This document shows, one piece after another, positions 2,686-61,439 of a DNA stretch of 64,000 bases. The stretch comes from Thermodesulfobacteriota bacterium (GTDB taxonomy: Bacteria; Desulfobacterota; QYQD01). Within the stretch, counting starts at the first letter, position 1; every line of letters begins with the position of its first letter. Position numbers and translations under genes: made by a program. The stretch covers positions 73,853 through 137,852 of the forward strand of contig JBFMFO010000002.1 in assembly GCA_040754095.1 (NCBI GenBank), in the 5' to 3' direction. The notes beneath the pieces are model-generated. The model saw only the letters and a program-made list of their open reading frames with translations, had not been told where the DNA came from and ran no database searches.

Positions 2686-3111
2686 ATGGGCATTCGCCGG
2701 AAGGCACGAGAAAGCGCTCTTCAAATATTGTACGAAATGGACCTGACCGGGTCGGGGGCGGAAAAGGCGACGTCCGCCTTCTGCGCTTCATTTAAGATTC
2801 CGGAGCAGGCACATGATTTCTGCTTACGACTGGTCAAAGGTGTCGAGACCCATCGGGGACAAATAGATAGTTTAGTTAATGGGCATTCTGAGCACTGGCG
2901 GCTGAATCGAATGTCGCGGGTGGATCGGAATATCTTGCGGCTGGCTGCATTTGAACTCTTGTATTGTGACGACATCCCCCCTAAGGTAACTATCAACGAG
3001 GCAGTAGAGCTGGGTAAAAAATTTGGGACCGAAGACTCCGGTCCTTTTATAAATGGAATACTGGACGCCATCTACGATGCCAAGATAAAGAAGCTCATAG
3101 CTGGTAGCTGA
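2686..3111 (+). CDS. nusB: transcription antitermination factor NusB
   Basis: RRKARESALQILY N-terminus; 141 aa; classic ribH-nusB linkage. Confidence 0.9.
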   Translation: MGIRRKARESALQILYEMDLTGSGAEKATSAFCASFKIPEQAHDFCLRLVKGVETHRGQIDSLVNGHSEHWRLNRMSRVDRNILRLAAFELLYCDDIPPKVTINEAVELGKKFGTEDSGPFINGILDAIYDAKIKKLIAGS

Positions 3112-3181
3112 TGGCTCATAGCGATCAGCCATGAACCATGCGCCATGAACATTGTCAGGGTAGGAGTGATAAAACTTAGTT

Positions 3182-6218: not shown

Positions 6219-6227
6219 TTGATGAAT

Positions 6228-6395
6228 TCGTAAAAAGCCCAAAATATCACGCAACGCCGCCAAGGACGCAAAAAAATAGAATTTGGAACTCAGGAACTCA
6301 TGAAAAAATCTTTCATTCCTGATTTTTTGATTTCCAGATTTTAATTTTTCCTTCGCGGTCTTTGCGCCTTTGCGTGAGAAATAGAAATGGCCTGT
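6228..6395 (-). repeat. MITE-like element, family A copy 1 (~170 bp; terminal inverted repeats of cgcaaag(g/a)cgcaaag type)
   Basis: About 85-90% identical to the reverse complement of 9092-9264; TIR-like ends cacgcaacgccgccaaggacgcaaa / ttcgcggtctttgcgcctttgcgtg. Confidence 0.75.
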
Positions 6396-7845: not shown

Positions 7846-7924
7846 CGTATAGCGGAACGTTATCATGCTGACTTACTGAAGTTTTCTGAGTTGTTAGGAA
7901 ACCCCTTGTGTTTCTGAGCGAAAC

Positions 7925-8045
7925 TTGCTGGAGCAGCGGGGCCCCCTTCGCGGGCGAGCAGGAAGGGGAAAACCCGTCTTAGGCGGAAAGGGGCAAGCAT
8001 TCCCCGCCTGCGAGTCCGCTGGAGGGGGATCGCTGCGCAAGCCGT
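7925..8045 (+). other. GC-rich structured intergenic element (candidate ncRNA or cis-regulatory RNA) upstream of the radical SAM gene
   Basis: Nested G-run/C-run hairpins (ggcggaaaggggcaagcattccccgcctg; cccccttcgcggg) in an otherwise AT-rich spacer. Confidence 0.25.
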
Positions 8046-8157
8046 GAAGCGAATAAATTAAGGGGGTTCACTTAAGAAATGTAAAATTATAAATAAGATC
8101 AAGTAATATGGGATGCGTCTTTAAAAACTCAGGAACATGCTAAATTAATACGAACTC

Positions 8158-9087: not shown

Positions 9088-9091
9088 CGGC

Positions 9092-9264
9092 TTCGTAAAA
9101 AGTCAATTTCTCTCGCAAAGGCGCAGAGACTGCGAAGAAAAATGAAAATCTGGAAATCAAGAAATCAGGAATAAAAGATTTTCCATGAGTTCTTGAGTCT
9201 CAAATTCTATTTTTTGCGTCCTTGGTGGCTTTGCGTGATATTTTGTAATTTTTACGAGATCGTC
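9092..9264 (+). repeat. MITE-like element, family A copy 2 (full length, TTCGTAAAAAG ... CTTTTTACGAG ends)
   Basis: Inverted-orientation copy of 6228-6395; both outer termini present. Confidence 0.75.
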
Positions 9265-9284
9265 AACATCGGGGTCTTAAGGTT

Positions 9285-9914: not shown

Positions 9915-9971
9915 CCATATTTATACCCCCTTGTCGAGCAATCAGCACTCAGCTATCAGCATGAAGCCGGT

Positions 9972-10038
9972 CCACCGTTCACTGTTGACCGTTTACCGAA
10001 AGAAAATGTCGGACAACGGTTAACGGTTAACGGATAAC
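9972..10038 (+). repeat. CCGTT-rich hairpin repeat, family D copy 1
   Basis: ccgttcactgttgaccgtttaccgaaagaaaatgtcggacaacggttaacggttaacggataac; arms complementary. Confidence 0.6.
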
Positions 10039-10213
10039 AAACATGCTGACGGCTGATGGCGGATAGCTGAAAGCGTGAAGTTCGCCTCGGCGAATCTGCC
10101 TGTGGCACGACCGGAAACAGTAGTTCCCGGCCTATGGTCGGCCCAGGGCCGGATGAGCACTAACTACAACCCGCCAGGAATTTCTAATTAAGATTTAAGA
10201 AAAAAACCCCTCA

Positions 10214-10281: not shown

Positions 10282-12540
10282 ATGGACAACGAACCCAAAA
10301 CCTTGCAGGAGATATTAGATGATATTGCACTCAAGGCTATAATGCTGACCCCGGGCAATCTGGTTGAGTTAGGGGAACTCCTCTCCAAGATCGAAGAGGT
10401 TATGGCCTATGATGATACAACCCTCCCGGCAGCTGTAAAGAAGATAGGTAGGGGACTCAAACTTATTATAGAAAAGATCATATTGGGCGAGATACCCGAC
10501 ACGGACGTAGTCTATGAAAAAATAAGCCAGGCCATCTCTATGTTGCAGGATATTTGCAGAGAAAAAGATCATGAGCAGGCCAGCGCTTCTCTTAAAAACT
10601 TTAATGGACTGCTTAAAGAATTAAATCTTCCGGATACGGAAGGGCAAACAGCGGGACAAGATGACATAACAATGGAAGAGGAGGCAACACCTGAAGCTCC
10701 TGTGACCAAAAGCAAACCGGTTATAGACATTACTCAGGATAAAGAATTGCTTACCGGTTTTATTAGCGAGAGCATGGAACATCTTGAACAAATTGAGGTG
10801 GACATCCTCTCCCTTGAACAGTCTCCCGAGGATAAGGACTGCATAAACGCTATCTTTAGACCATTCCATACTATAAAAGGTGTCTCAGGCTTTTTAAATC
10901 TACAGGATATTAACAAGTTAGCCCATGAAACGGAAAATATCCTGGACAGGGCCAGAAACGGCGAACTTTTGATCTCCTCAGAAATTATTGACCTTATCCT
11001 GGACGCCTGTGATGTCCTGAAAAGAATGATAATGGACATAAAAACGGCCTTGGAGACAGGTACATTAGAGCAAAAGGATTACGACCTGGACAGTGTTATT
11101 AGCCGGATAAAGGCCGCACAGGAAGGGGAGGCAGGAAAAGAGGCCGCCTGTCCGGAGTCTAAATTAGTAGGTGAGATACTGGTCGAAAAAGGGGTAGCTG
11201 ATACGGAGGCCATAGATAAGGCCCTGGAAAAACAGCGAGATTCCGGTGAAAAAATCGGGGAGATTATCATCAGAGAGGCCGCTGTTAAACCCAAAGAGGT
11301 CGTCCATGCCCTGCGTGAACAAAAAGCTATGGCCTCCATTGCGTCTGCCGGGACTGCCAATAGCGCCGTCAAGGTGGACATCGGCAAGCTCGATAACCTG
11401 GTAGATATGGTCGGTGAGCTGGTCATCACCCAGTCCCTTATCTGGCAGAATTCCCACGTCCAGGCCATACGGGATCAGAAACTTATGCGTGATTTCTCCC
11501 AGCTAAGCCGTATTACTACTGAGCTACAGAAGACAGCCATGTCATTGCGAATGGTGCCCATAAAACAGACCCTTCAGAAAATGATCCGGTTGGTAAGGGA
11601 TCTGGCCAAAAAATCTGAAAAACAAGTTGATCTTCAGATGAGCGGTGAGGATACAGAGATCGACCGCAATATGGTGGACGCCATTTACGATCCCTTGGTG
11701 CATATGATACGTAACTCTATAGACCATGGCATTGAGATGCCGGATGAAAGAGCAGCTAAAGGCAAGCCGGCCACCGGCACCATATGGTTAAGGGCTTATC
11801 AAAAAGGCGGTAACATTGTGATTGAGATCGAGGATGACGGACAGGGCCTGAACCGCGAGAAGATATTAAAAAAGGCAAAGGAAAAGGGATTGATTAAAAA
11901 CACCGAGGGGCTTTCCACATTTGAAATTGATAATCTTATATTCCAGGCCGGATTTTCTACAGCCGATAAGATAACCGATGTCTCCGGCCGGGGCGTAGGG
12001 ATGGATGTAGTAAAGAAAGCCATAGAGAAGTTGCGCGGCAAGGTGGAGATAAATTCGCGTCCGGGACAAGGTTCTACATTCACCATTAAGGTTCCGCTTA
12101 CCCTGGCTATTATCGACGGCATCATAGTAAAGGTAGGGGTGGAACGTTATATAGTGCCGACAGTGGTCATTAAAGAGACTATAAGGCCGCGGCAGGAAGA
12201 ATATAGCACTGTCCATGGCAAGGGCGAGATGATTAAGGTCAGGGGAAATCTTATCCCGTTAGTAAGATTATATAAGATGTTTGATATTGATGCCGAACAT
12301 AAAGACCCTTGCGAGTCCCTGGTAGTTGTGGTTGAAAACGAAGGACGGCAGAAATGCCTGCTGGTTGATGACCTCCTGGGCAAACAGGAAGTGGTCATCA
12401 AGAGTCTCGGAGACCACATGAAAAATGTCAGAGGACTGGCTGGAGGGACTATTTTAGGAGACGGAAAAGTAGGGTTGATTTTAGATATAAACGGCATATT
12501 TAGTGTGGCTGAAGAACAAAATTTGGGGATGCTGCATTAA
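10282..12540 (+). CDS. cheA: chemotaxis histidine kinase CheA with an extra N-terminal domain and an inserted MshEN-like tandem motif
   Basis: Hpt box FRPFHTIKG, dimerization domain, HATPase (GRGVGMDVV G2 box), C-terminal CheW-like P5 domain; 752 aa. Confidence 0.9.
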   Translation: MDNEPKTLQEILDDIALKAIMLTPGNLVELGELLSKIEEVMAYDDTTLPAAVKKIGRGLKLIIEKIILGEIPDTDVVYEKISQAISMLQDICREKDHEQASASLKNFNGLLKELNLPDTEGQTAGQDDITMEEEATPEAPVTKSKPVIDITQDKELLTGFISESMEHLEQIEVDILSLEQSPEDKDCINAIFRPFHTIKGVSGFLNLQDINKLAHETENILDRARNGELLISSEIIDLILDACDVLKRMIMDIKTALETGTLEQKDYDLDSVISRIKAAQEGEAGKEAACPESKLVGEILVEKGVADTEAIDKALEKQRDSGEKIGEIIIREAAVKPKEVVHALREQKAMASIASAGTANSAVKVDIGKLDNLVDMVGELVITQSLIWQNSHVQAIRDQKLMRDFSQLSRITTELQKTAMSLRMVPIKQTLQKMIRLVRDLAKKSEKQVDLQMSGEDTEIDRNMVDAIYDPLVHMIRNSIDHGIEMPDERAAKGKPATGTIWLRAYQKGGNIVIEIEDDGQGLNREKILKKAKEKGLIKNTEGLSTFEIDNLIFQAGFSTADKITDVSGRGVGMDVVKKAIEKLRGKVEINSRPGQGSTFTIKVPLTLAIIDGIIVKVGVERYIVPTVVIKETIRPRQEEYSTVHGKGEMIKVRGNLIPLVRLYKMFDIDAEHKDPCESLVVVVENEGRQKCLLVDDLLGKQEVVIKSLGDHMKNVRGLAGGTILGDGKVGLILDINGIFSVAEEQNLGMLH

Positions 12541-12551
12541 TTATAATGAAT

Positions 12552-12636
12552 GTCATTAGTCAATAGTCATTTGTCACCGGTAAAAGAGAACAATCTTCCA
12601 CCTTCAACCAATGACCGATGACTGATGACCAGTGAC
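12552..12636 (+). repeat. GTCA-rich long hairpin repeat, family B copy 1
   Basis: gtcattagtcaatagtcatttgtcaccggtaaaag ... ccaatgaccgatgactgatgaccagtgacc; left arm nearly identical to 61307-61341. Confidence 0.7.
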
Positions 12637-12683
12637 CTTGCCTATAAGCTGAAAGCTTATATATGAAAAAGGGGAGTTAAATT

Positions 12684-13064
12684 ATGCCGGCAGATAAGAA
12701 CATGAGAATATTGGTGGTTGATGACTTTAATACCATGCGCCGTATAGTAAAAAATATTCTGAAACAACTGGGATTCGAAAATGTAGGCGAGGCCGAAAAC
12801 GGTCAGGAGGCGCTTGAGGTCTTGAAAAAAGAAAAATTTGACTTCATCATAACCGACTGGAACATGCCGGTTATGACCGGTCTTGATCTGCTTAAGGCGA
12901 TCAAGGCAGACGCCGCATTAAAAGACCTCCCAGTAATGATGGTGACTGCCGAGGCGCAGCAACAGAATATCGTGGAGGCGGTTAAGAATGGGGCCAGCAA
13001 CTATATCGTCAAGCCATTTACGGCCGAGGTTCTGGAAGAAAAGATAAACAAGATATTTAAGTAA
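12684..13064 (+). CDS. cheY: chemotaxis response regulator CheY
   Basis: 126-aa single receiver domain; DD...D...K phospho-acceptor pattern ([16 protein letters not shown]). Confidence 0.85.
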
Positions 13065-15223: not shown

Positions 15224-15267
15224 CTCAATAAATGCCTGCCTGACGGCAGGCAGGGAGGCGGCTTCTT

Positions 15268-18950: not shown

Positions 18951-19043
18951 CAATATTGGAAGCGTTCAAAATGTTATGTTAATGTTATGTTACCGGCACT
19001 CTTATGTTAAGTTTAGTCCGGACTTAAAGAAAGTGGTGTTAAT

Positions 19044-20555: not shown

Positions 20556-20588
20556 CCTCCACAGAAAAAATTATAAAGAAACCACAGA

Positions 20589-20641
20589 GCACACAGAGTT
20601 TTTAAAATTTAAAATTCTTTTTCTCGGTGTTCTCTGTGGTT
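20589..20641 (+). repeat. family A-like mini hairpin (cacagag variant)
   Basis: aaccacagagcacacagag - 24 nt AT-rich loop - ctcggtgttctctgtggtt; between the PilZ-PAS gene and rtcA. Confidence 0.5.
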
Positions 20642-20659
20642 AATCTTTTGATAAAACCT

Positions 20660-21751
20660 ATGATCGAAATCGATGGCTCCTATGGAGAGGGTGGCGGGCA
20701 GATATTACGGACCGCTCTAAGTCTATCCTGTCTCCTCCAGAGGCCCTTCCGCATATATAACATCCGCGCTAGCAGAAAAAATCCCGGTCTGCGCCCGCAG
20801 CATCTGGCCGGTGTAAAGGCAGCAAAGGCGATCAGCCAGGCAGCGGTTGACGGCGCCACTATCGGTTCGACTACCCTTGCCTTTCGGCCTGTTACACTAA
20901 AAGGCGGCAAATATTTCTTTGATGTGGCCGAAGAAAGGGGAAGCGCTGGATCCGTCTCTCTGGTCTTTCAAACCATATCACTTCCATTAGCTTTTGCAGG
21001 CAAGCCTTCCGATGTGACCATAAAAGGCGGCACTCATGTGCCCTGGAGTCCACCCTTTCACTACCTGGCCGTGGTATTTATTCCCACCATAGAAGGAATG
21101 GGCATGGTGGTAGATGCCCATCTTGAACGATGGGGTTGGTATCCTATGGGCGAAGGCATCGTCCATTTTTCTATAAAGTCCGCCAGAGGCGGGCTGAAAA
21201 GCATATCTAAAACCGACAAGCTGCGACCGGAAGAGGTGACCGCAATATCAGCAGCTTCCAATCTTCCGGAACACATCGTAACCCGGCAGAAGAGACAATT
21301 GTTAAATAGAATTTTTGAAGATGCGCCACGGCGTGCCACGGAGGGGACAACAATATCCTGTGAAGAGATTACGGCGCCTTCCATTGGTCAGGGAACTTTT
21401 GTATTCTTAAGGGTTCGGGGAGGCAACTCCTTTGCCGGTTTTTCGGCCCTAGGAACCAGAGGGAAGCGGGCGGAAGAAGTAGCCGATGAGACTGCCGATT
21501 TATTCCTCTCCTTTCTGGATAGTCAGGCGGCTGTAGATAGACACCTGGCCGATCAGCTTATTCCCTATATGGCCCTGGCTGATGGAGAAAGCAAAATCTT
21601 TACCGCAGAAATAACCCTGCACCTCATGACCAATATCTGGGTTGTTGAACATTTTACCCAGGCCAGGTTCCATATAGAGGGCACACTTGGCGCTCCCGGC
21701 ACCGTAACATGCCTTCCAGACAAGAAGCTGAAAGCTGATGCTAAAAGCTGA
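20660..21751 (+). CDS. rtcA: RNA 3'-terminal phosphate cyclase
   Basis: MIEIDGSYGEGGGQILRTALSLS RtcA signature; the last ~10 codons are encoded by a GCTGA-rich repeat. Confidence 0.85.
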   Translation: MIEIDGSYGEGGGQILRTALSLSCLLQRPFRIYNIRASRKNPGLRPQHLAGVKAAKAISQAAVDGATIGSTTLAFRPVTLKGGKYFFDVAEERGSAGSVSLVFQTISLPLAFAGKPSDVTIKGGTHVPWSPPFHYLAVVFIPTIEGMGMVVDAHLERWGWYPMGEGIVHFSIKSARGGLKSISKTDKLRPEEVTAISAASNLPEHIVTRQKRQLLNRIFEDAPRRATEGTTISCEEITAPSIGQGTFVFLRVRGGNSFAGFSALGTRGKRAEEVADETADLFLSFLDSQAAVDRHLADQLIPYMALADGESKIFTAEITLHLMTNIWVVEHFTQARFHIEGTLGAPGTVTCLPDKKLKADAKS

Positions 21752-21755
21752 AAGC

Positions 21756-24026
21756 TTATTTTATGCTCCCCAAGGCCTTTTCCGCCTCTCTGGCCTCCGG
21801 GAAGGCACGACTTATACCAAGGGCCTTGGTCAACTCTGCCTTGGCTTTAGCTTTATTTCCTTTCTTAAGGTAAGCCATGCCTAAGTGATAATGAATGCTG
21901 GGATGATTAGGAATCTTCTTAATGGCATCTTCAAACTCTTTTATAGCCCTCTCAACAATATTTTTCTTATAGTATATCCATCCCAGAGTATCAGCGATGC
22001 CCGGGTCTTCAGGGTTCTGTTCCTTGGCCATTTGGGCCAGGGTAAGGGCTTCGTCTATGTTTCCGCCATGTTCCGCCAGATTACAGGCCAGGTTATTTGC
22101 CGCCGGTGCAAATTTCGGATTGATTTTTAAGATTTCCCGATATTCTTTCTGGGCGGCGTCATATTTACCCCGGGAATCATATAAGACCCCCAGACTCATA
22201 CGGGCGGTTATAGCCTTTGGATTCCTTTTTATGGCCTCCTGAAACTCTGCCATGGCCTTATCCGTGCGTTTTGTGGCTGCATACAGCCTCCCCAGGGCCA
22301 TATACGGAGAGACAAAGTCAGGACTGATACTGATTGCTTTCTTGTAGTTTACTTCCGCAAGATCAACCTTCTGATCCGCCAAGTGGAGATTGCCGAGCAG
22401 GTTATAGATAAAAGGATTGTTGGGGGAACGTTTAAGCTGTTCCTCCGCTCGTGTTATGGCCTTTTTCAGATCTCTCCCCGCCACGTGAATAGAAACCACC
22501 TGGCTCAAGGCATCAATAAGATGGGGGTTTAACTTTAAGGCGTCTTCAAACTCACTTAACGCCGAATTATTCTGGCCTATCACACGGTAAGCTATGCCCA
22601 GACGATAATAACCTGCCGGTGACCTGGGAGCTATTTTCTTGGCCTCCTGATATTCCTTTTGCGCCTCCTTGACCTTCTTTTGCCCCATATAACTGTCTCC
22701 CAGGAGGAGCCTGGCCTGGAAATTTCCCGGCTGAATCTTGATCGCTTCCTGCAATTCCCTTTGTGCTGCATCAACAGCCCGTTCTCCCAAATAGACCTCG
22801 GCCAGCAGCAATCTTGCCTTTGTAAGGCCCGGCGCCTGCTTAACGACCTCAACCAGGCTGTTTTTAGCGAGCTGGGTTTCACCTTTCCCGATATGGGCCA
22901 GGGCCTTATAATAGCGGACGTCCTGAAGACGCGGCTCTTCTTTAAGAATCCCATCAAATTCGGTCAGGGCATTGGTAAAATCTCTCTTATTGAGATAAAT
23001 CCGACCCTTAAGTATCCGGGCCGGGATGTTCTTTTCGTTTTCGTCAAGAATATCTTCCAGTTCTTTTTCGGCCTCTTTTATCTTTCCAAAGTCATAATAG
23101 AGCGTGGCTATGGCATTTTTGATATTCAAATCATCAGATTTAGCCTCCGAAGCCTTCTTAAACCCGGCAAGGGCAGGTTCAAATTTATTCTGTAAGGCAT
23201 AATATCGTCCCAGGACCATAAAAGGTTTCGGGTCCTTGGGATCGAGCTGTGTGGCCTTTTTAAAGGTACCCTCAGCCTCTGTCGGCCTGCGTGTTGCCAT
23301 ATAGAAATTGCCCAGTATAATGTAATAGTCTGCTTTCTTGGGGTTTAAGGAGATAATCTTCTTCAATTCGGCCTCTGCCTGGTCAATTCGTCCGGTACGG
23401 GCATAAAAGTCAGCCAGTGTGAGCCGGGGGGCAGGCGCTTTCTCGTCTGCCGCCATTGCCTTTTTAAGGTATTCCTCCGCGAGGTCTAATTTCTTCTGCC
23501 CTGCATAAATCCTGGCCAGTAATATGTAGGCCGGAGACTGTTTAGGATCGAGCGCAATAACTCTATTCAGGGTGGCAATAGTTTCGTCGGGTTTACCTTC
23601 TGCCAATAGAATGTTGCCTGACAGATAGAGGGCATCAATATTGTCAGGCTCCTTTTTTAAGACTAAGGCGGCCTTTTCTTTTGCCTCCGGCAGCTTTCGG
23701 CCTAACATGTATAGATTTCCAAGTTTAATCTGGGCATCGTATAGCTCAGGATTAAGTTCCACCGTTCGGCTTAGTTCTCCAAATGCACCCCTTAGATTCC
23801 CCTTTTTGAGATAAACAAGGCCTAATTGATGGTGCCCATCTACATATTTGGGATCGATCTGGAGGGCATTCTTGAACTCAATAATGGCCTCATCCAGCTT
23901 ATTTTCCTTAACCAATTCCATGCCCTTTTTATAATGTTTAGCCTTCTTTTCCTCAGGAGTGCTGCAGCCGACACATATCAGCATTATTACTGCAACCAGG
24001 GAAAACCAAAACCTTTCTGTCCTCAT
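21756..24026 (-). CDS. TPR-repeat lipoprotein
   Basis: Lipoprotein signal (LICVGCS), then about 20 tandem TPR units (repeated Y/A/G/L pattern); 756 aa. Confidence 0.8.
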   Translation of the reverse strand: MRTERFWFSLVAVIMLICVGCSTPEEKKAKHYKKGMELVKENKLDEAIIEFKNALQIDPKYVDGHHQLGLVYLKKGNLRGAFGELSRTVELNPELYDAQIKLGNLYMLGRKLPEAKEKAALVLKKEPDNIDALYLSGNILLAEGKPDETIATLNRVIALDPKQSPAYILLARIYAGQKKLDLAEEYLKKAMAADEKAPAPRLTLADFYARTGRIDQAEAELKKIISLNPKKADYYIILGNFYMATRRPTEAEGTFKKATQLDPKDPKPFMVLGRYYALQNKFEPALAGFKKASEAKSDDLNIKNAIATLYYDFGKIKEAEKELEDILDENEKNIPARILKGRIYLNKRDFTNALTEFDGILKEEPRLQDVRYYKALAHIGKGETQLAKNSLVEVVKQAPGLTKARLLLAEVYLGERAVDAAQRELQEAIKIQPGNFQARLLLGDSYMGQKKVKEAQKEYQEAKKIAPRSPAGYYRLGIAYRVIGQNNSALSEFEDALKLNPHLIDALSQVVSIHVAGRDLKKAITRAEEQLKRSPNNPFIYNLLGNLHLADQKVDLAEVNYKKAISISPDFVSPYMALGRLYAATKRTDKAMAEFQEAIKRNPKAITARMSLGVLYDSRGKYDAAQKEYREILKINPKFAPAANNLACNLAEHGGNIDEALTLAQMAKEQNPEDPGIADTLGWIYYKKNIVERAIKEFEDAIKKIPNHPSIHYHLGMAYLKKGNKAKAKAELTKALGISRAFPEAREAEKALGSIK

Positions 24027-24046
24027 CTGATTCTCCTTTTTATATC

Positions 24047-24138
24047 TTACCTCGGAGCACGCCTGTCTGCGTACGACGCACAGGCAGGCCGAGATTGGCG
24101 TGGTGGCGGGTTGCGGCCTATGTGAGCTTTGCGGTGAA
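24047..24138 (+). repeat. family A-related element (ggagcacgc...gctttgcggtgaa)
   Basis: Shares ggagcacgc and a ctttgcggtgaa terminus with 27533-27610; contains the hairpin gcctgtctgcg/cgcacaggcagg. Confidence 0.45.
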
Positions 24139-24146
24139 TATTAGAG

Positions 24147-25935: not shown

Positions 25936-26011
25936 GGATTTTAAATTTTGATTGATGCCTGTTTTTTATTTATCTCTGTGTCCTCTGTGTCTCTGTGGTG
26001 AATAAGCGCTT

Positions 26012-27515: not shown

Positions 27516-27532
27516 AATATTTCAGATTTTTT

Positions 27533-27610
27533 ACCGCAGAGGCCGCGGAGCACGCAGAGTTTTATCTTTATTTATATTTATCTCTGCGCCCTTTGCGCCT
27601 TTGCGGTGAA
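27533..27610 (+). repeat. family A mini-element: two TIR-like arms around an AT-rich loop
   Basis: accgcagaggccgcggagcacgcagag - ttttatctttatttatatttat - ctctgcgccctttgcgcctttgcggtgaa; ends 4 nt from the hldA stop. Confidence 0.6.
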
Positions 27611-32410: not shown

Positions 32411-33021
32411 GTGTGATGAATCCGTATTATGTCGTCTTTGACATCAAAAATTGAGTTTGAGTACTTTTCCCCCACAAACTCTCTGAGTTGAGACAAGGTG
32501 GGGTAACCATTTTGTCCGGTGAAACTCCTCGCATCATCAATTAAAATGACATGATTCTTAATAGGATGGCTAAAAATGTATTGCAGTTCCTTCATTATTG
32601 GTGTGTCTAAATCTCCCTTACCGGTTTCTCCACCTGAATAATGTGCATCAAGCCAAAACAGAACCGGTTCTTTAATATTGCTTAAAATTTTCGGTAAAAT
32701 ATATCCGCTATCGCCATAATACAGACAAATATGTCTGTGACCCGCAAACTTTTTAACTGCTTTTTGGTACAAAGGTTCATATACTTCTATAGAGTGTATA
32801 GATGTAAAGTAATTTCTCATCGACTCAACCATATCTCCATAATACGTTCCGGTTTCTACCATAATTCTAATTCTAAACCTATCCGCATATTTTTTTACTA
32901 CCCATTGTTTTACTACATGGGGAGGGGGGATAGGTCTTCCTTTAATTATCCAAAACAATCTATCCCATACTTTATTAGGCAATATTCTTTTTATCTCTTG
33001 TTTAAAATTTCTATAACCCAC
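32407..33021 (-). CDS. class I SAM-dependent O-methyltransferase (TylF/MycF / CmcI-like)
   Basis: VETGTYYGD SAM-binding-like motif and LDAHY...G pattern; 204 aa; AT-rich. Confidence 0.5.
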   Translation of the reverse strand: MGYRNFKQEIKRILPNKVWDRLFWIIKGRPIPPPHVVKQWVVKKYADRFRIRIMVETGTYYGDMVESMRNYFTSIHSIEVYEPLYQKAVKKFAGHRHICLYYGDSGYILPKILSNIKEPVLFWLDAHYSGGETGKGDLDTPIMKELQYIFSHPIKNHVILIDDARSFTGQNGYPTLSQLREFVGEKYSNSIFDVKDDIIRIHHT

Positions 33022-34170
33022 TTAATACATCCTCTTTTCATATACCTTTAAAACTCTATCCACTGTCACTTCCCATGTATTATGGAGCGCTGTTTCTAAG
33101 GCTTCCTTCCCCATTTTGGTCCTGACTTCCTCATCCATCATCAAGGCAATTCTACTGGAGATTTTATCTGCATCGTCTGTATTCTCAAGAATAAAACCAT
33201 TAATCCCCTCTTTCACCAAGTCCTTTGCTCCCACGTTTCCACTGATTATGACTGGCAAGGAAGCCGCCATGGCTTCGAGTACGGACATCCCAAAGGTGTC
33301 AAATTTCGAAGGCATGGAAAAGATATCGCTGGCCGGATAAATTTTATCGAGCAGCTCTTTCTGAACAATCCCTGCAAAAACGACTTGGTCTTTTATTCCT
33401 AAATTGCGAGCCAACCTTTTGTACTTCTCATCATCACCTTTTCCTACGACCAGTAATTTAACCCTTTCCGAGGGGTGTCTCAACTTGAAGTTAGCTAACC
33501 CCATCATAAGCTTATCAAGGCCCTTAATATCAAAATTCATAGAAACAAACAAAATCACCCGATCTGATAAATCTATGCCAAATTTCTTTCTTATCTCCTG
33601 GCGGCAATGCTGCCGATCAACCCCTTGAAATCTTTGGATATCAACACCGGGAGGGATGACATGGACTTTGTCTGGATTAATATCTTTATATTCTTGCAGG
33701 AATTTCTCCTTGGCCAGGTTGGATACGGCCAGAAATCTCCGGCACCTTTTGTTTGTGACCAGTTTTTTTTCGGCCCATGTCGTTGCGTAATCAAAGAGGC
33801 TCACGCGTTTTTTACGCACTTCACGGACCCAGATTCGGTGCGGGATACCGTGCATGGTAAATATGTCGGCATTAAATATCCTGTCATGGGCGTGGACCAA
33901 GTCGAAGACCATTTTTGATATCTTGCGGTCTGCGAAATACGCGAAACTGACTGTGGTCAGGAATTTGGGGAGACCAATAACCGGAACGTGATGAAAGGTA
34001 ATATGTTCTGAGTTTTTTTGCCATTTATTAGCAAAAACATGCACTTCAAATCGCCTGTCCTGAGCAATCCTTTCCGTCAATTCAGCGACAAAACCTTCCG
34101 CCCCACCTACCAAGCCGTATTTTGGAATAACAACGGCTATTTTGCGGGGATTAAGAGGATTAATTAACAT
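33022..34170 (-). CDS. glycosyltransferase family 4 (GT-B, RfaG-like)
   Basis: GT4 N-domain plus Glycos_transf_1 C-domain (E-x7-E region; FGMSVLEAMAASLPVI). Confidence 0.8.
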   Translation of the reverse strand: MLINPLNPRKIAVVIPKYGLVGGAEGFVAELTERIAQDRRFEVHVFANKWQKNSEHITFHHVPVIGLPKFLTTVSFAYFADRKISKMVFDLVHAHDRIFNADIFTMHGIPHRIWVREVRKKRVSLFDYATTWAEKKLVTNKRCRRFLAVSNLAKEKFLQEYKDINPDKVHVIPPGVDIQRFQGVDRQHCRQEIRKKFGIDLSDRVILFVSMNFDIKGLDKLMMGLANFKLRHPSERVKLLVVGKGDDEKYKRLARNLGIKDQVVFAGIVQKELLDKIYPASDIFSMPSKFDTFGMSVLEAMAASLPVIISGNVGAKDLVKEGINGFILENTDDADKISSRIALMMDEEVRTKMGKEALETALHNTWEVTVDRVLKVYEKRMY

Positions 34171-34177
34171 TAGAGGG

Positions 34178-35131
34178 TTAAAGGAGTCTTCTCTTACCGA
34201 CCAAATAATAATTATTTGGTGAATGCCGAAGTTGCCAATTACACCATTCTATATCAGTTCTGGTATCTATCCAGTTTCTAAAGAACTCGATGTTATTTAC
34301 TTTTTCGAACTGATGTTGATAGGCGATCATAAATGTCTTAAATTGAGATGTTAAAGAGAGAATAGACTCTCTAAGGTCCATCGGCACCTCACTAATTGAC
34401 CAAGTGGCGATGAACATAGAATCCATCCCTTCAATATGTACTGGAATGATATCCATCATCTGTTCTAAATCCGAGAGGCAAATTACGCCATTTTCGGCGT
34501 CATTGAATGATTCGACTGAGTGGACTAATATGGCTGTGGATTTAAGATAGAACTGTTGCAATGCAGAAAAAGGGGGGAGGTCAAAAATAACATATTTCCC
34601 CCTGAATCCCAAATTGTGAAGTAATCTGCACATGCCTCCATAACCACCGCCAAATTCAAGGACAAAATCCATGTCATTAACATGCGTTTCGTTTTGTTCT
34701 TCAAATTTAGCTAAGCAGTAGGCCTGATGAATCAAGTTTCCGCTACTAACTGGATATCTCCAATATGGTATTGGATATCCAGTTGTAGATTCCTTAATTG
34801 CTTCACGCCAACGGCTTCTCCATTCAGGATGATTCTTAAGATATTTTAATTCTATTTTTACATATCTGGCATTCGTTACAAACATCGTCTGTACGATAAC
34901 GTCCCAGCGGAGGAACTCTCTGGGGTCATCATTTATGACTAATTCTCTCAGACGGTTTATATTCTTTAACCATGCTTCTTCGCAGGGTAATAAATTTGCC
35001 ATCTTCAATTGTGAAAGTCCATGAAAAGTGGCTTTAAGTTCGCTAACTAATTCTTTTTCCCTGTTGGTTGGTGGCGCAAGTGGTTTATCAAATGCGACCG
35101 ATACTAATTTGGAAATGAGATTCTTCAACAT
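34178..35131 (-). CDS. putative SAM-dependent (sugar O-)methyltransferase
   Basis: LEFGGGYGG glycine-rich SAM-binding motif I followed by an acidic residue at the end of beta2 (IFD). Confidence 0.4.
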   Translation of the reverse strand: MLKNLISKLVSVAFDKPLAPPTNREKELVSELKATFHGLSQLKMANLLPCEEAWLKNINRLRELVINDDPREFLRWDVIVQTMFVTNARYVKIELKYLKNHPEWRSRWREAIKESTTGYPIPYWRYPVSSGNLIHQAYCLAKFEEQNETHVNDMDFVLEFGGGYGGMCRLLHNLGFRGKYVIFDLPPFSALQQFYLKSTAILVHSVESFNDAENGVICLSDLEQMMDIIPVHIEGMDSMFIATWSISEVPMDLRESILSLTSQFKTFMIAYQHQFEKVNNIEFFRNWIDTRTDIEWCNWQLRHSPNNYYLVGKRRLL

Positions 35132-35137
35132 ATATGC

Positions 35138-36418
35138 CTAGTTTTTATTCCGTATTACTATGGTGACTCCATAATTAAGACGCCATAAAATAGTCATCAT
35201 AGCGAAAATAGCGTAAAGCACAATCGCAGGTGGGCCACTGTGTATGTTTTCAAACATCCCCTGGATAAAGACGGCAACAAATGCAGCCATGAGACAAAGT
35301 CCCCAGCTTTTTATAAAATCGTCTTTTCCATATTTCATTGTCTTCCATCCCATTCGGACAAATGCAAATATTATGTAAAGATACAATGCAAGGCCTACAA
35401 GACCGAGTCTCGCGGCCACATCAAGTAATAAGTTATGAGGAGCAGCAGTAGGCGTTTCTTGTCTATATTCGATGGGTATTCTTGCGTTATATCTATTTAA
35501 AAGATCCTTATTATCATAAGTTTGCATTCCAAAACCGATACCGGTGATTGGGTAATCTTTAACGATTTCGATGAAGTTATAAGTTATGTTTATTCTAGGA
35601 TCATTCCGTATTTTACTTACGATGCTTTGCGTGGCTAAACGATGCCTTACAGGCAAAAATATCATAGCAACTAACAAAAACATAATAAAAATGACCACTG
35701 TTTTTTTATTTTTCAAAAATAATATAGGCAGAGAAAACACGATGGCGAGCAATGTACCTATCGTTTGTGTTAAAAGGGTGGCCAAAGACGTTACTATTAG
35801 GCAAATGGCGAGGAGAGTTTTACGATATATGCTTATCTTCTCATGGAGATATTGTAATGATAAGATAATGGCAAATAGGGTTACAATACCAATAATGTTA
35901 ATTGGAATTTCAGTGAAGTCAAGGCCAAGTCGTGTTGTTATATTATTTCCCAAGAAGAAGTAAAAATAAGTGATTGCCCAGATCGAAAAAGCCGCTGCGG
36001 ATAAGATTGTGACCCACATTAACCCCACAAGCCGTTTCTTAGCATTAAAAAAATTGACCAATATATAATAGAAAGTTAAATACTTTAGTAAATGTGCATA
36101 AAAGTCATGGATGCTATTTGGGTTGTTGAGCGCAAAGAACAGGCCAACAAAGACCCAAATGGTAAAGAGCGCAAAGGGCATACTCAATGGCATCTTGAAG
36201 GAAAAACTAACCTTTTTAAAAACTAACAGCAGAAGTACGATAAGGGCCGAAAGATAAAAACAAGCTTCCTTTATCGTGGTTGTGTGGGGAAAGGGGTTGA
36301 AGAATAAGAATATTCCCATTAATATGGGAATGCTTTGTTTAAAAAGTTCGAATATTCTATCGCCTTTTTTTACCTTTTCCATTGGTTTTAAGTCACTGAC
36401 AGCTTTGTCATACAACAT
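35138..36418 (-). CDS. O-antigen ligase / polymerase family membrane protein (WaaL/Wzy-like)
   Basis: 426 aa with about 10-12 hydrophobic helices and a periplasmic loop region; sits in the glycan cluster. Confidence 0.7.
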   Translation of the reverse strand: MLYDKAVSDLKPMEKVKKGDRIFELFKQSIPILMGIFLFFNPFPHTTTIKEACFYLSALIVLLLLVFKKVSFSFKMPLSMPFALFTIWVFVGLFFALNNPNSIHDFYAHLLKYLTFYYILVNFFNAKKRLVGLMWVTILSAAAFSIWAITYFYFFLGNNITTRLGLDFTEIPINIIGIVTLFAIILSLQYLHEKISIYRKTLLAICLIVTSLATLLTQTIGTLLAIVFSLPILFLKNKKTVVIFIMFLLVAMIFLPVRHRLATQSIVSKIRNDPRINITYNFIEIVKDYPITGIGFGMQTYDNKDLLNRYNARIPIEYRQETPTAAPHNLLLDVAARLGLVGLALYLYIIFAFVRMGWKTMKYGKDDFIKSWGLCLMAAFVAVFIQGMFENIHSGPPAIVLYAIFAMMTILWRLNYGVTIVIRNKN

Positions 36419-37359: not shown

Positions 37360-37390
37360 CTATAGGTGTAGTCACTGGTCATTAGTCAAA

Positions 37391-37496
37391 GTCAATTTTT
37401 CACGCGAAGACGCAAAGACCGCGAAGACAACGTATTGTTATCAAAGAAAAAATTTTGCGTCCTTGGCGGTTTTGCGTGATATTTTGGATTTTTTAG
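37391..37496 (+). repeat. family A short variant (two TIR-like ends, ~105 bp)
   Basis: cacgcgaagacgcaaagaccgcgaag ... ttttgcgtccttggcggttttgcgtgatatttt. Confidence 0.6.
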
Positions 37497-37529
37497 AAAC
37501 CGTCAACTCTGTGAACTCTGTGGTAACAA

Positions 37530-39565: not shown

Positions 39566-39940
39566 ATGTTGCGTTAAAACCCTCATATTTATTATGCAGC
39601 ATTCTTGATAGTCTCATAAAAAGTTCACACTGAACCAAACCGGATGAAGTTTCCACCTTGTCCTTGGGTATCTTCTGGGCCCCAAACCGACATAACCTTT
39701 CCCAATCCTTTCCGCCTGTTCATTGAAGCTCCCCGCAGCAAGCAGCGGGGAATGCGCTCGCTATGCATGTTCATAAGGAACTCTACCTGTAGTTAGCCCG
39801 CCCACGAGTAACCCTGTTATGCAATATTTTCCGTGCCGTTTTTATGACGGCATTATGTGGCTGCAAGATGGCAAAAGCAGGTTGCTTTTTAAGATGAGGT
39901 GGAGTAAAGAAGATGTCTCACATCACCTCTGGAGGGAATA

Positions 39941-41060: not shown

Positions 41061-41747
41061 TTGCTCATAACTATAGACGGGCCGGCCGGCGCAGGGAAAA
41101 GCACTGCGAGTAAGAAATTAGCCGATATTCTGGGGTATGTGTATCTGGACACCGGCGCCTTATACAGGGCCTTAGCGCTTGCTGCCCAAAAAAATAATCT
41201 TAACCCCGATAAAGGAGAAGACCTGGAAAGGCTGTGCCGCAAGCCCGCCATCGCCCTGACCTATAACGCCGGCAAACTAACGGTTATCATGGCCGGAGAG
41301 GATGTCAGTGAAGAAATCCGAGCCCCGGAGATCAGCATGCTTTCATCATATATCTCGGCCAAGCCGATGGTCAGAGAATCCTTGCTGGAGATGCAAAGGG
41401 ACATCGGTAAAAGGGGAGGCGTAGTGGCGGAAGGAAGAGATATGGGAACCGTGGTCTTCCCCGATGCCGATGTCAAATTTTATCTTGACGCTTCACCGGA
41501 AGAAAGGGCCTCAAGAAGGCACAAAGAACTACTGCAAAAAGGCAATAGCCCGGATTACAACCAGGTCTATAAGGAAATGTTAAAAAGAGACGCCAACGAC
41601 AGCAGCCGGGCCGTAGCCCCGTTAATACCTGCCCCGGATGCTATTTTTGTAGATAGCACAGATAAAAGCATAGATGAGGTAATTGCCTTCATGCTGGCCA
41701 AGATAGAAGAAGGGGAAAGGTCAAAATCTAAAGTTCATGGCTCATAG
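41061..41747 (+). CDS. cmk: cytidylate kinase
   Basis: ITIDGPAGAGKST P-loop at the N-terminus; start inferred at a TTG at 41061 (the six-frame ORF from 40974 overlaps hisC). Confidence 0.85.
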   Translation: MLITIDGPAGAGKSTASKKLADILGYVYLDTGALYRALALAAQKNNLNPDKGEDLERLCRKPAIALTYNAGKLTVIMAGEDVSEEIRAPEISMLSSYISAKPMVRESLLEMQRDIGKRGGVVAEGRDMGTVVFPDADVKFYLDASPEERASRRHKELLQKGNSPDYNQVYKEMLKRDANDSSRAVAPLIPAPDAIFVDSTDKSIDEVIAFMLAKIEEGERSKSKVHGS

Positions 41748-41837
41748 CTGATGGCTGAAATCTGATTGCTGAAAGCGTGAATCTGGAAACAGTAGTTTCC
41801 GGATGAACAAAGTTAGATATTAAATCCGTGAAACAGG

Positions 41838-48028: not shown

Positions 48029-48034
48029 AAATGC

Positions 48035-48117
48035 GTAACCGTTCACCGTTGTTAGTTCACTGTTCACCGAAAAAAGATATTCAGGTTTTTACGGACAACG
48101 ATTAATTGATAACGGCA
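48035..48117 (+). repeat. CCGTT-rich hairpin repeat, family D copy 2
   Basis: gtaaccgttcaccgttgttagttcactgttcaccgaaaaaag...tacggacaacgattaattgataacggcaaat; same motif order as 9972-10038. Confidence 0.6.
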
Positions 48118-48223
48118 AATGGATAGTTCCGGGTGCGACCAGAAGTCTCAGCAAGTCTCCAGGGGTCGGACGGGGACGGATGCTGTTCTACAAGGAGAAA
48201 TCAAAAGTAAGGTCTATGCGATC

Positions 48224-53291: not shown

Positions 53292-53885
53292 ATGTCTGAA
53301 TTAAAGAAAATCCTGGAGGCCTTGATATTCGTCTCCGAAACACCGCTCCGCCGGGATAAGATTATCGATGCCCTCCCGGAATACAAAAAGGAGGAGATAG
53401 AGGCGACCCTGATTCAACTCAAGGACGAATACGATGCCGAAGGCCGCAGCTTCGCCCTTTATGAGGTAGCCGAAGGCTTCCAGTTCAGGACAAGGCCTGA
53501 ATACCGGGATTGGATCGCCCGCCTGAAAAAATCCGCTCCGGCGCGACTCAGCCGCGAGGCCATGGAAACGCTGGCCATTATCGCCTACAAGCAACCCATA
53601 TTGCGGTCTGAAATAGAAAGGATCCGGGGGGTAGATGTGAGCGGCGTTCTGAAATCGCTTCTGGAGAAAAAACTTATTCGCATCGTGGGACGCAACAAGG
53701 AATTAGCCGGGAAACCCCTTATCTATGGGACCACCCAAAGATTTTTAGAGGTATTTGATCTAAGGGATCTGTCCTCCCTTCCCAGTCTTAAAGAAATCAA
53801 GGCCCTTACTCCTGATACTGTCGAGGGCAAAGAAAGGACTCCGGACCTCTTTGACCGGTCTGAGGGAACCGGAGTTGATAGCTGA
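53292..53885 (+). CDS. scpB: segregation and condensation protein B
   Basis: ILEALIFVSETPL N-terminus and tandem winged-helix ScpB pattern. Confidence 0.85.
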   Translation: MSELKKILEALIFVSETPLRRDKIIDALPEYKKEEIEATLIQLKDEYDAEGRSFALYEVAEGFQFRTRPEYRDWIARLKKSAPARLSREAMETLAIIAYKQPILRSEIERIRGVDVSGVLKSLLEKKLIRIVGRNKELAGKPLIYGTTQRFLEVFDLRDLSSLPSLKEIKALTPDTVEGKERTPDLFDRSEGTGVDS

Positions 53886-53914
53886 CGGCTGAACGCTGAT
53901 AGCTGGAATGTTTT

Positions 53915-54670: not shown

Positions 54671-54818
54671 GAAGAAAAGAAATGTCACATATCTCTTAGT
54701 GCCTTAGTGTCTTTGTGGCGGTGGTTTTTCACGAAACCGCCAAATTATTCTTTACAAGCTTATACAAGCTTTGGTATATGTATTGACCTAAGCCAAGACA
54801 GGTAGTGAGGATAGTGCC

Positions 54819-55980: not shown

Positions 55981-56127
55981 GCAAATATAACGCATTGACC
56001 TGGGCCTGTCTTTCCTTTAGAATTTAAAGCCAGGGCGCAGATAGAAACATCTCAAATTTCAAATTTGAGATTTAAGATGTTTCCTTTGCGTCTCTGCGGT
56101 GAACTTTTTGATAATACGAAATAATTC

Positions 56128-60838: not shown

Positions 60839-61321
60839 ATGACCAAACCGGATCAAACAAACGTGGTAGAAATCTTCACAGACGGGGCGTGCAGCGGGAA
60901 CCCCGGGCCGGGCGGATGGGGCGTTATCCTGCGCTTTGGGGCGCATGAAAAAGAGTTGTCCGGATTCAACCCGGATACTACCAATAACCGCATGGAGCTT
61001 CTGGCCGCCATACGGGCCCTGGAAAGCCTGAAAAAACCTTGCCGGGTTATATTAACCACGGATTCGGCCTATCTCAAAAACGGCATTACCACCTGGATAC
61101 ATAACTGGAAAAAAAGAGGCTGGTGTAAGAGCAATAAAAAGCCGGTGGAAAATGTGGATTTGTGGCAGCGGCTTGACACCTTAGCATCCCGGCACAATAT
61201 CGAATGGCGCTGGGTTCGCGGCCATCAGGGACACCCGGAAAATGACCGCGCCGACCGGTTAGCGGTTTCCGCCATTAAAAAGGCCCTGGCCGGTGAGATA
61301 GTGGATGTCATTAGTCAATAG
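60839..61321 (+). CDS. rnhA: ribonuclease HI
   Basis: [15 protein letters not shown] ... RMEL ... TDS ... catalytic DEDD pattern; the last 5 codons lie inside a GTCA-rich hairpin repeat. Confidence 0.9.
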
Positions 61322-61392
61322 TCAGTTGTCACTGGTAAAAGTGATCCATCTTTCCAACTTAATCAATGACTAATGACCAGTGACCAGTGACG
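61307..61392 (+). repeat. GTCA-rich long hairpin repeat, family B copy 2 (overlaps the rnhA stop)
   Basis: gtcattagtcaatagtcagttgtcactggtaaaag ... aatcaatgactaatgaccagtgaccagtgacg. Confidence 0.7.
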
Positions 61393-61439
61393 TTTTAAAT
61401 TTTGGCATTGATTTGAACTTTTAACTTTGAACTTTTAAC

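Follow-up and report, generated by a model that had tools for sequence, protein, structure and literature searches.

The cheA gene of the uncultured Thermodesulfobacteriota bacterium represented by assembly GCA_040754095.1 (GTDB lineage Desulfobacterota; QYQD01) ends with a stop codon at 12538-12540 of a 64,000-nt stretch of contig JBFMFO010000002.1 (positions 73,853 to 137,852; henceforth the window), and cheY starts at 12684. Between these genes, a preliminary description had marked a GTCA-rich hairpin at 12552-12636. This segment proved to be one copy, B1, of a dispersed palindromic repeat of about 100 nt whose full extent is 12543-12648 (ends TATAATGAAT..CTTGCCTATAAG). Both arms of B1 are composed of four degenerate heptamers, of the form GTCAnTn in the 5' arm and complementary in the 3' arm: GTCATTA, GTCAATA, GTCATTT and GTCACCG are followed by a 25-nt loop and then by AATGAC, CGATGAC, TGATGAC and CAGTGAC. 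A second copy, B2, was located at 61298-61395; its first 24 nt encode the residues IVDVISQ and the stop codon of RnhA. B1 (12543-12639) and B2 (61298-61394) share 79% identity over 97 nt including the non-repetitive loop. A one-armed fragment lies directly 3' of a glycosyltransferase stop codon (37361-37392), and its first part (37361-37388) is 82% complementary to B1 at 12619-12646. Both the B pair and the fragment at a third site had been proposed before and were confirmed. Downstream of B2, an array termed K (61410-61441), with TTTGAACTTTTAAC in two copies, extends to the phoU stop codon, and the combination of B2 and TTTGAAC was also detected in another gene context at the metagenome locus L217. 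The GTCA core is invariant in 16 of 16 B units, while neighbouring positions vary; statements on units rest on direct reading, as per-position profiles were out of phase for some arms. B1 and B2 are predicted to fold as long imperfect hairpins on either strand with minimum free energies (MFE) of -28 to -40 kcal/mol and z-scores of -3.2 to -6.5 against dinucleotide shuffles, the values for B1 being -30/-40 kcal/mol and -4.7/-6.5.

Reading of every spacer in the window revealed that B is accompanied by further repeats. At least eight families with 7- or 8-nt units are present, each unit consisting of a conserved 4-5-nt core and variable positions, and they occur as single arms, as hairpins or as hairpins nested in the loops of others. 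By a simple lag test, applied in the same way to shuffled sequences, 11 arrays with a period of seven and two with a period of eight were counted in the window, compared to 0.1-0.15 in the shuffles. One array had a period of four, none a period of 5, 6 or 9-12. Twelve of the 13 arrays are mostly intergenic while 91.5% of the window is coding. Chance can be excluded because of the excess over shuffles, the restriction to periods of seven and eight and the intergenic placement. As a background, 80 other genomes (1.4 Mb) contained 1.09 period-7 and 0.41 period-8 arrays per 64 kb. These genomes were taken from a DnaE search, in which the relatives among the matches listed showed at most 55% identity and were too distant for a comparison of protein tails. 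The curated element set amounts to 2,017 nt or 32% of the non-coding bases of the window; together with flanks and relatives, about 100 kb of this lineage was covered. Neither the periodicity of the arms nor the nesting nor the families E1-E3, F, G, H, I, J, K, O, P, R and S had been recognized in the preliminary description.

The elements lie 0-7 nt 3' of stop codons or cover the last 1-9 codons of genes. In tandem spacers, the median gap is 2 nt between the stop codon and the element and 35 nt between the element and the next start, and in 15 of 17 such spacers the element is nearer to the stop than to the start (binomial p=0.002). All three convergent junctions but none of the four divergent spacers carry an element (Fisher p=0.03). 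The earlier statement that the hairpins begin within 0-15 nt of stop codons does not hold for D1, which starts 58 nt after a stop codon because it is nested in C arms whose own distance from that stop is about 20 nt. In two samples, Logan contigs were found that are 100% identical to the window and end inside repeats at 61334 (B2), 12576 (B1), 10089, 25834 and 39745/39753, three of them stopping at 61334. An artefact of a single assembly was therefore rejected, since these contigs are independent; that they end inside repeats is explained by the breaking of short-read assemblies at multi-copy sequence.

Six genes (ribH, nusB, rtcA, cmk, scpB and rnhA) terminate inside an element, while the DUF4416 gene and phoU are contacted at the stop codon only. 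This corroborates the preliminary description for rnhA, rtcA, nusB, cmk and scpB, whose last residues had been assigned to repeats together with the stop codons, and restricts it for DUF4416 to the stop codon. According to the translations, RnhA ends with ..IVDVISQ, RtcA with ..KLKADAKS (C-type array 21725-21756, at the convergent ends of rtcA and the gene hyp756), NusB with ..KLIAGS (C-like hairpin 3092-3150, covering the last six codons and the stop), Cmk with ..HGS (single C-type arm at 41737-41781, which with an S module makes up 41737-41800; the three codons and the stop are included) and ScpB with ..EGTGVDS (strain-specific segment with a C-type arm, 53862-53905, which fills the 29-nt spacer between scpB and rluB). 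The 5' arm of element H forms the last nine codons of ribH. The residues encoded by a repeat always lie past the end of the Pfam domain.

For comparison, a second strain (GCA_049323255.1; strain 2) covering most of the window at about 99% identity, including the locus L085, and two genomes fully syntenic with positions 1-22.5 kb, L223 (GCA_028715605.1) and L225 (GCA_031082315.1), were available. The cheA genes of L223 and L225 are 95.8% and 96.2% identical to that of the window; for the three related genomes together, cheA identity is 96-99.7%. ScpB ends with ..DLFDRSEGTGVDS in the window and with ..DLFDRS in strain 2, homology being lost at the first base past the last shared codon; thus, each strain obtains its ScpB stop codon from its own repeat. 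NusB ends with ..AKIKKLIAGS in the window, ..AKIKGTN in strain 2 (L085) and ..DAISHQLCQGGSDKT in L223 and L225 (tail SHQLCQGGSDKT); the 68-nt hairpin is missing from these two genomes, and the coding sequence of nusB extends to a point 2 nt short of leuS. The tail of RtcA differs in all four genomes, and a single G indel at 21740, inside the array, accounts for the difference between the window and strain 2. The last 24 nt of rnhA match the 5' end of B copies that occur elsewhere in non-coding contexts. Among 15 RnhA orthologues with 84-91% identity, ten end with GEMDVDSL(Q/R/E)P, three, this one included, with GEIVDVISQ and two otherwise. In the syntenic relative L219 (RnhA 83% identical), rnhA and phoU are 4 nt apart, B2 is missing and the two stop codons lie within a C-type heptamer array, from which the tails of both proteins are translated. 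Few relatives are truly free of repeats, as the same slots are mostly filled by other repeats; one of them, L222, has the RnhA tail IDVDWTGNIKK and no arrays in 17 kb. Hence, the repeats remodel C-termini: the tails differ exactly where the repeats begin, beyond the Pfam domain. For NusB, RtcA and ScpB, this holds between strains that are about 99% identical. The outcome which, according to the preliminary description, would have spoken against remodelling, identical tails in relatives that lack the repeats, was not borne out.

The spacers themselves change rapidly. By reading of alignments, 11 of 15 compared spacers differ structurally among the four genomes, and every structural change involves periodic or hairpin repeat sequence 3' of a gene. 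Apart from a divergence in wzy and small compensating indels in three genes, structural differences are confined to repeat regions; none was seen in the divergent promoter spacer rpsT|fpg or in the long leader s54|PilZ. The composite at 9928-10158 exists in four states in four genomes, being complete in the window, replaced by 30 unrelated nt in strain 2 (L085), reduced to a C hairpin without D in L223, and present in L225 with a D hairpin shortened by one 7-nt unit and without R module. Element E2 has kept its outer frame CGGCTTCGTAAAAAG...TTTTTACGAGATCGTCAAC while three periodic hairpins unrelated to one another take turns as its interior among the four genomes, and E1 carries in strain 2 a 60-nt R-module insert in its inner loop. 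The cheA-cheY slot is occupied by B1 in three of the four genomes and by a nested C-type hairpin in L225; the spacer measures 143 and 142 nt (L225), respectively, and all versions fold at -35 to -41 kcal/mol. The window has a 29-nt spacer between scpB and rluB; in strain 2, this spacer is a composite hairpin of 243 nt, homology breaking at 53861. In L223 and L225, the 3' part of H is replaced, leaving the RibH tail unchanged, and G is replaced by AGTCA/AGCTGA arrays. A heptamer-hairpin insertion of about 190 nt was found in L225 immediately 3' of the cheB stop codon, with GATGACCT (8 bp) duplicated on both sides; this site is empty in the window and in L223. Differences of a single 7-nt unit exist between D1 and its L225 counterpart and between the L217 copy and B2.

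Beyond this lineage, family B was traced with an exact 18-mer common to B1 and B2, which occurs in at least 120 metagenome stretches. Ten of the matches listed proved to be genuine homologues of B, sharing its loop and the ends TATAGTGAAT...GTTGCCTATAG, in other gene contexts, and by reading they take both orientations to the upstream gene (7 vs 3). The locus L217 additionally contains E-inner and R modules; L217, L109 and L198 share these and other modules with the window. The remaining matches listed belong to other arrays of GTCA heptamers, frequently of the GTCATTG type. Among 93 non-redundant listed matches, an inverted TGAC array follows within 170 nt downstream in 37 and precedes in 5 (background 2.8%). 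On the basis of crude calls of open reading frames (ORFs), GTCA arrays of the listed metagenome matches lie in 18 convergent and 8 divergent spacers, and this broad set showed no bias towards the stop in tandem spacers (22/44). A nested design with unrelated units is also found in a Syntrophales metagenome-assembled genome (MAG), STB_114 (L015, 4766-4943 and 7532-7767), in which AAAGTGA-type heptamer arms surround a GGTCGAGA-type octamer hairpin; with seven arrays in 12.5 kb, this locus is denser than the window.

The elements probably represent mobile palindromic repeats of at least eight families, similar to miniature inverted-repeat transposable elements (MITEs) or to repetitive extragenic palindromic (REP) sequences and bacterial interspersed mosaic elements (BIMEs), which rewrite the 3' ends of genes. 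That they are mobile, or at least propagate by copy-and-paste, is shown by shared loops and ends, presence/absence polymorphisms, nesting and the one target duplication. Slippage on the arms is evident from the differences in steps of 7 nt. The palindromy of B reaches the ends of the element (TATAGTGAATGTCA.. / ..TGACGTTGCCTATA), so terminal inverted repeats, a feature of MITEs, are present. Spread might be brought about by a transposase acting in trans, by recombination between related copies or by both, and the number of units would drift by replication slippage. Elements may persist next to stop codons because insertion is tolerated there, purifying selection sparing a position after the stop and before the signals of the next gene; alternatively, the bias could arise from the targeting of existing hairpins. 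Where an element overlaps a gene, it would supply the stop codon and a new tail beyond the conserved domain.

Several observations do not fit this explanation well. Among the genes called in about 100 kb of window, flanks and relatives, no transposase or REP-associated tyrosine transposase (RAYT; Y1, PF01797-type) was detected, nor is an autonomous partner known. Clean empty sites, and hence target duplications, were not seen for B, C or D; replacements were found instead. In a number of swaps, the outer frame and even the length of the spacer persist, as between cheA and cheY; recombination, or selection for an occupied slot, accounts for this better than simple transposition does. The nusB event may be an insertion or a deletion between GCCATC-type repeats, its polarity being ambiguous. 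Covariation did not contribute either, as ten B copies, preselected by a fixed 18-mer, contained no double change and none of the 17 pairs was informative.

It is also possible, albeit clearly less probable, that the host keeps the stem-loops as punctuation of gene ends, as a barrier to 3'-exonucleases, an intercistronic stabiliser or a terminator, with different families filling the slot; this would be compatible with mobile repeats. According to the folding predictions, the elements would appear in transcripts as stem-loops of -20 to -60 kcal/mol. Such a role is suggested by slots that stay occupied while their content changes: between cheA and cheY, B1 alternates with a C-type hairpin of the same length and within the same stability range, and the slot between the radical-SAM gene and mph always holds a long hairpin within a constant A/T-tract frame. 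Moreover, the elements lie close to stop codons, and the number of canonical short terminators in the window does not exceed chance. On the other hand, some slots are empty or unstructured in relatives, namely mph-cheA (L085), nusB-leuS (L223/L225) and PilZ-rtcA (L223/L225, z -1.6 and 0.1), there is no sense-strand preference for G-U pairs, B occurs in both orientations, and most B, C and D copies are devoid of a U-tract.

As to termination, the elements resemble intrinsic terminators in being stem-loops right 3' of genes, and family E possesses an A-/T-tract frame (CGTAAAAAG...TTTTTACG). By eye, a T-run 3' of the stem is present at B2, which is followed by TTTT, and at the E family. B1, C1, D1 and D2 differ from terminators by long mismatched stems, loops of 25-45 nt and the lack of a T-run. 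A consensus terminator scan, which allows loops of 3-8 nt only, gave counts near shuffle expectation and listed no B, C or D element. Stability on the sense and antisense strands and G-U counts disclosed no consistent preference (sense stabler in about six hairpins, antisense in about four). Judging from the sequence, B, C and D are unlikely to act as terminators because most copies have no T-tract and several elements lie between co-directional genes (cheA-cheY, scpB-rluB, ribBA-ribH-nusB-leuS); these families may at most be 3'-end or intercistronic stabilisers, or neutral. The E family, by contrast, plausibly terminates transcription in both directions.

A more far-reaching proposal, to which we attach little probability, is that the position after the stop codon is a maintained slot for interchangeable hairpin cassettes, in which occupancy and outer frames are kept while the interiors are exchanged, implying a trans-acting factor. 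If so, this factor might be a structure-specific recombinase or an oligomeric RNA- or DNA-binding protein that recognises the iterated cores or the folded hairpins, and a system of gene-end punctuation would at the same time drive the rapid evolution of C-terminal tails. One may further speculate that, as 7 and 8 are not multiples of three, stop-bearing units close three frames within three units, so that cassettes would be safe at any coding end. As evidence, stops in all frames were discarded because they are not significant: a stop triplet occurs on one strand in about half of random heptamers and, in the elements described here, in approximately 8 of 11 unit types.

Slightly less probable still is the idea that the arrays are primarily binding sites with 4-5-nt cores spaced by 7-8 nt for an oligomeric DNA- or RNA-binding protein, the hairpin being secondary. 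Invariant cores with variable neighbours, as in B, the existence of single arms without partner and the strong polarity of the listed metagenome copies, in which the inverted TGAC arm is preferentially downstream, are consistent with it, and similar proposals have been published for IHF/HU (PMC2700814) and for S1/Csp/CsrA (PMC4679880). However, at least eight unrelated cores would require as many proteins, no candidate protein is linked, and families are swapped freely at one site; young or recombination-homogenised copies would show conserved cores as well. The least probable explanation is that of purely local simple sequence repeats (SSRs) without mobility, generated by slippage at each site with inverted arms from local template switching: it can invoke single 7-nt unit changes, the 1-nt indel inside an array, the common single arms and the frequency of heptamer SSRs (PMC4679880), yet as the sole explanation it is contradicted by non-repetitive loops and ends conserved across unrelated loci and metagenomes, by whole composites present or absent between strains and by the 8-bp target duplication, leaving slippage as a contributing process. 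An analogy to integron attC sites, which are imperfect hairpins at the 3' ends of cassettes, was rejected, as the region lacks an integrase and consists of housekeeping genes in synteny.

The elements were also compared with known systems. With the REP sequences, BIMEs and REPINs (hairpins formed by REP doublets; PMC3116915) of Enterobacteria and Pseudomonas, they share the properties of short extragenic imperfect palindromes that are often arranged as inverted doublets in hairpins of about 100 nt, mosaics with other small motifs, an enrichment 3' of genes, the occupation of the same slots in relatives and the breaking of assemblies. The analogy drawn in the preliminary description is well founded as regards dispersed imperfect palindromes at gene 3' ends and their mosaic, nested make-up. 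They differ by arms made of tandem degenerate 7/8-mers, by extensive nesting and by many unrelated families per genome. REP sequences and REPINs carry a conserved terminal tetranucleotide of the GTAG type that is recognised by RAYT, the RAYT gene lying in the same genome and being flanked by the repeats. At the ends of the elements, no GTAG was noticed by eye, a motif search not having been run, and one stray GTAG is contained in the fragment at 37361; the ends of B have the sequence TATAGTGAAT.., and the cores of the arms are formed by GTCA, TCAGC and CCGTT. MITEs that alter gene ends include the Correia elements of Neisseria, the Rickettsia palindromic elements and the cyanobacterial Nezha. 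Like the elements described here, MITEs are non-autonomous palindromes of 100-200 nt; one target duplication was found here, and insertion at coding ends creates new C-terminal residues. The internal 7/8-nt periodicity of the arms and the cassette-like swapping of interiors inside constant frames set our elements apart.

Heptamer repeats of heterocystous cyanobacteria, the short tandemly repeated repetitive (STRR) sequences, were reportedly described by Mazel et al. in 1990, and Mrazek et al. are said to have reported long heptanucleotide SSRs in 2007. To our knowledge, STRR sequences are restricted to heterocystous cyanobacteria and have the exact units CCCCAGT, TTGGTCA and CAACAGT. The elements resemble STRR sequences and SSRs as head-to-tail heptamers between genes, and GTCATTG-type units recall the STRR unit TTGGTCA; such units were abundant among the at least 120 metagenome matches to the B 18-mer, 40% of which had an inverted partner arm. 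They differ from the STRR in their Thermodesulfobacteriota host, degenerate units, defined ends and loops and dispersed occurrence, the resemblance to TTGGTCA being limited to the core. In many bacteria, long SSRs most often have a heptamer as their unit (cited in PMC4679880), and TAACTGA heptamers, for which binding of S1, Csp or CsrA was proposed, have been reviewed with long heptanucleotide SSRs (PMC4679880); TAACTGA repeats are located upstream of start codons while the present elements are 3' of stop codons. In Geobacter metallireducens, paired sites on opposite strands, each with three to five tandem units of 7-9 nt and at variable distance, occur in dozens of intergenic places (PMC2700814). 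Classes 1-3 of these sites, GTTGCTYN, TCTCCGTS and MTYCTGA, were interpreted as possible IHF/HU 'global regulator binding sites', and insertion sequences (ISGme8/9) lie at a fixed distance from some of them (PMC2700814). Common to both systems are paired inverted arrays, a related phylum and a nearby insertion (cf. element I in strain 2), and the units TCTCCGTS and MTYCTGA resemble CTCTGCG and nnGCTGA, a likeness at the level of unit sequences. In contrast to our analysis, the Geobacter paper does not compare strains and mentions neither a bias towards 3' ends nor an influence on coding ends (PMC2700814). By this comparison, the heptamer- or octamer-periodic nested elements belong to a known type of selfish intergenic palindromic repeats, with close architectural precedents in Geobacter and cyanobacteria, and do not constitute a new system; STRR sequences, the Geobacter sites and long heptamer SSRs may even be one architecture of inverted 7-8-nt unit arrays.

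The region is of value because it documents with unusual clarity how such repeats turn over and how this affects the ends of proteins, in a lineage with many MAGs and strain variants. As the comparison of natural, nearly isogenic strains shows, about 1-4% divergence can suffice for small palindromic repeats to be exchanged at the majority of gene ends in a housekeeping region, and essential proteins (NusB, RnhA, ScpB, RtcA and PhoU) have repeatedly received a new stop codon and new terminal residues in this way. As a consequence, the annotation of C-termini and start sites in such genomes becomes unreliable, assemblies break, and tail differences of close orthologues should not be read as adaptive.

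Among the other families, C had been described earlier as one hairpin with about eight fragments, which is substantiated by the TCAGC/GCTGA heptamer-arm hairpin C1 (26903-26995, between DUF4416 and yicC, overlapping the DUF4416 stop codon; MFE -43/-36, z -7.5/-6.2) and by arms or fragments at 1926-1953, 9937-9965 and 10044-10079 besides those at the nusB, rtcA, cmk and scpB ends. The single arm at 1926-1953 (AGCnnTC in four copies, 7 nt 3' of the ribBA stop codon) is kept in four genomes and contains a 26-nt insert in L223. Within the composite at 9933-10158, the C arms 9937-9965 and 10044-10079 surround the D1 hairpin (9972-10038), followed by an R module (about 10083-10115) and an S module (about 10108-10130); the nested C[D]C structure has an MFE of -62 and a z-score of -7.1. 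Overall, the predicted folds of B1, B2, C1, D1 and C[D]C range from -20 to -62 kcal/mol (z mostly -4 to -8). The second member of the CCGTT family, D2 (48033-48118), is located 4 nt 3' of the guaB stop codon. D1 and D2 are both hairpins with a common architecture, as had been described, although the fold of D2 is weak (z -1.7) and only 54 of 96 aligned columns are identical. A C[D] half-copy, inverted and 92% identical to 9937-9998, exists immediately upstream of window position 1 (L098, 1-87), and the Logan contig L098 ends inside it.

The E family has the ends CTTCGTAAAAAG / CTTTTTACGA. E1 (6219-6392), a nested hairpin of about 170 nt between the convergent genes lptE and rpsT, has 8-mer arms on the outside and a GGAACTCA-type hairpin within. 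Its inverted copy E2 (9088-9266; frame CTTCGTAAAAAG...TTTTTACGAG) begins at the radical-SAM stop codon, and E3 (hairpin 37385-37495) together with a G-type arm covers 37385-37522. Outer 8-mer arms around an inner hairpin are likewise a feature of H (2469-2646), whose outer pair TTCACCGCAAGG../..GGCGGTGAA encloses inner hairpins (MFE -63, z -5.5). The 8-mer-periodic hairpin F (27530-27610, CGCAGAG/CTCTGCG type; MFE -43, z -8.4) and the CCACAGAG-type hairpin G (20559-20650) both lie 3 nt 3' of a stop codon, of pfkB and the PilZ-PAS gene, respectively. P (24040-24146) combines a TTCACCGCAAAG arm and a hairpin 3' of the spoU stop codon, O (25963-26005) is a single CTCTGTG-type 8-mer arm 6 nt 3' of the yicC stop codon, and J (54695-54745) is a CTTAGTGC 8-mer array with a small hairpin 3' of rluB. 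An Rfam scan of the whole window at the gathering threshold gave no match, and a literature search with the repeat sequences themselves returned primer coincidences only.

Element I (56036-56103) comprises a hairpin and a ..CTCTGCGGTGAA arm. In strain 2 and one Logan sample, an insertion (at about 56088-56093) lies exactly between TTTGCGTCT and GCGGTGAA of this element (L095 11276-11399, L001 1-124 and L004 1-27), and both assemblies break about 125 nt into it. Its ends, 124-130 nt each, had no match elsewhere in the loci compared and contained no readable ORF; it is probably a multi-copy insertion sequence targeting this repeat end.

A module without heptamer periodicity at 39731-39774 (..CCCCGCAGCAAGCAGCGGGGAATGCGCTCGC..) is a dispersed repeat with 95-98% identity to the metagenome loci L109 and L198, and three Logan contigs begin in it (39745/39753). 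The fpg|radical SAM spacer (7846-8157) contains G+C-rich nested hairpins (GGAGCAGCGGGGCCCCC...GGGGGATCGCTGCGC) that are kept in three genomes, with changed tips in L223, and fully replaced by an F-type repeat in L225; they have no Rfam match and could be a structured RNA or another class of repeats. In the leader between the s54-activator and PilZ genes, the exact 11-mer AATGTTATGTT is repeated twice in tandem (18970-18992), L223 and L225 being about 10 nt shorter there. Within the coding sequence, wzy (35330-36045) is the only stretch that could not be aligned between the window and strain 2; the neighbouring glycosyltransferase genes (32417-35330) are 97% identical, which is typical of strain-variable surface-polysaccharide genes. 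The gene convergent with rtcA, on the minus strand at 21756-24026, is a 756-aa ORF with no Pfam family on record that is kept in all related genomes. A small hairpin, GCCTGCCTGACGGCAGGCAGG (15233-15254), between HDOD and response-regulator genes is kept in four genomes with single loop or stem changes and is among the few short G+C-rich hairpins of the terminator scan, on the strand opposite to the flanking genes.

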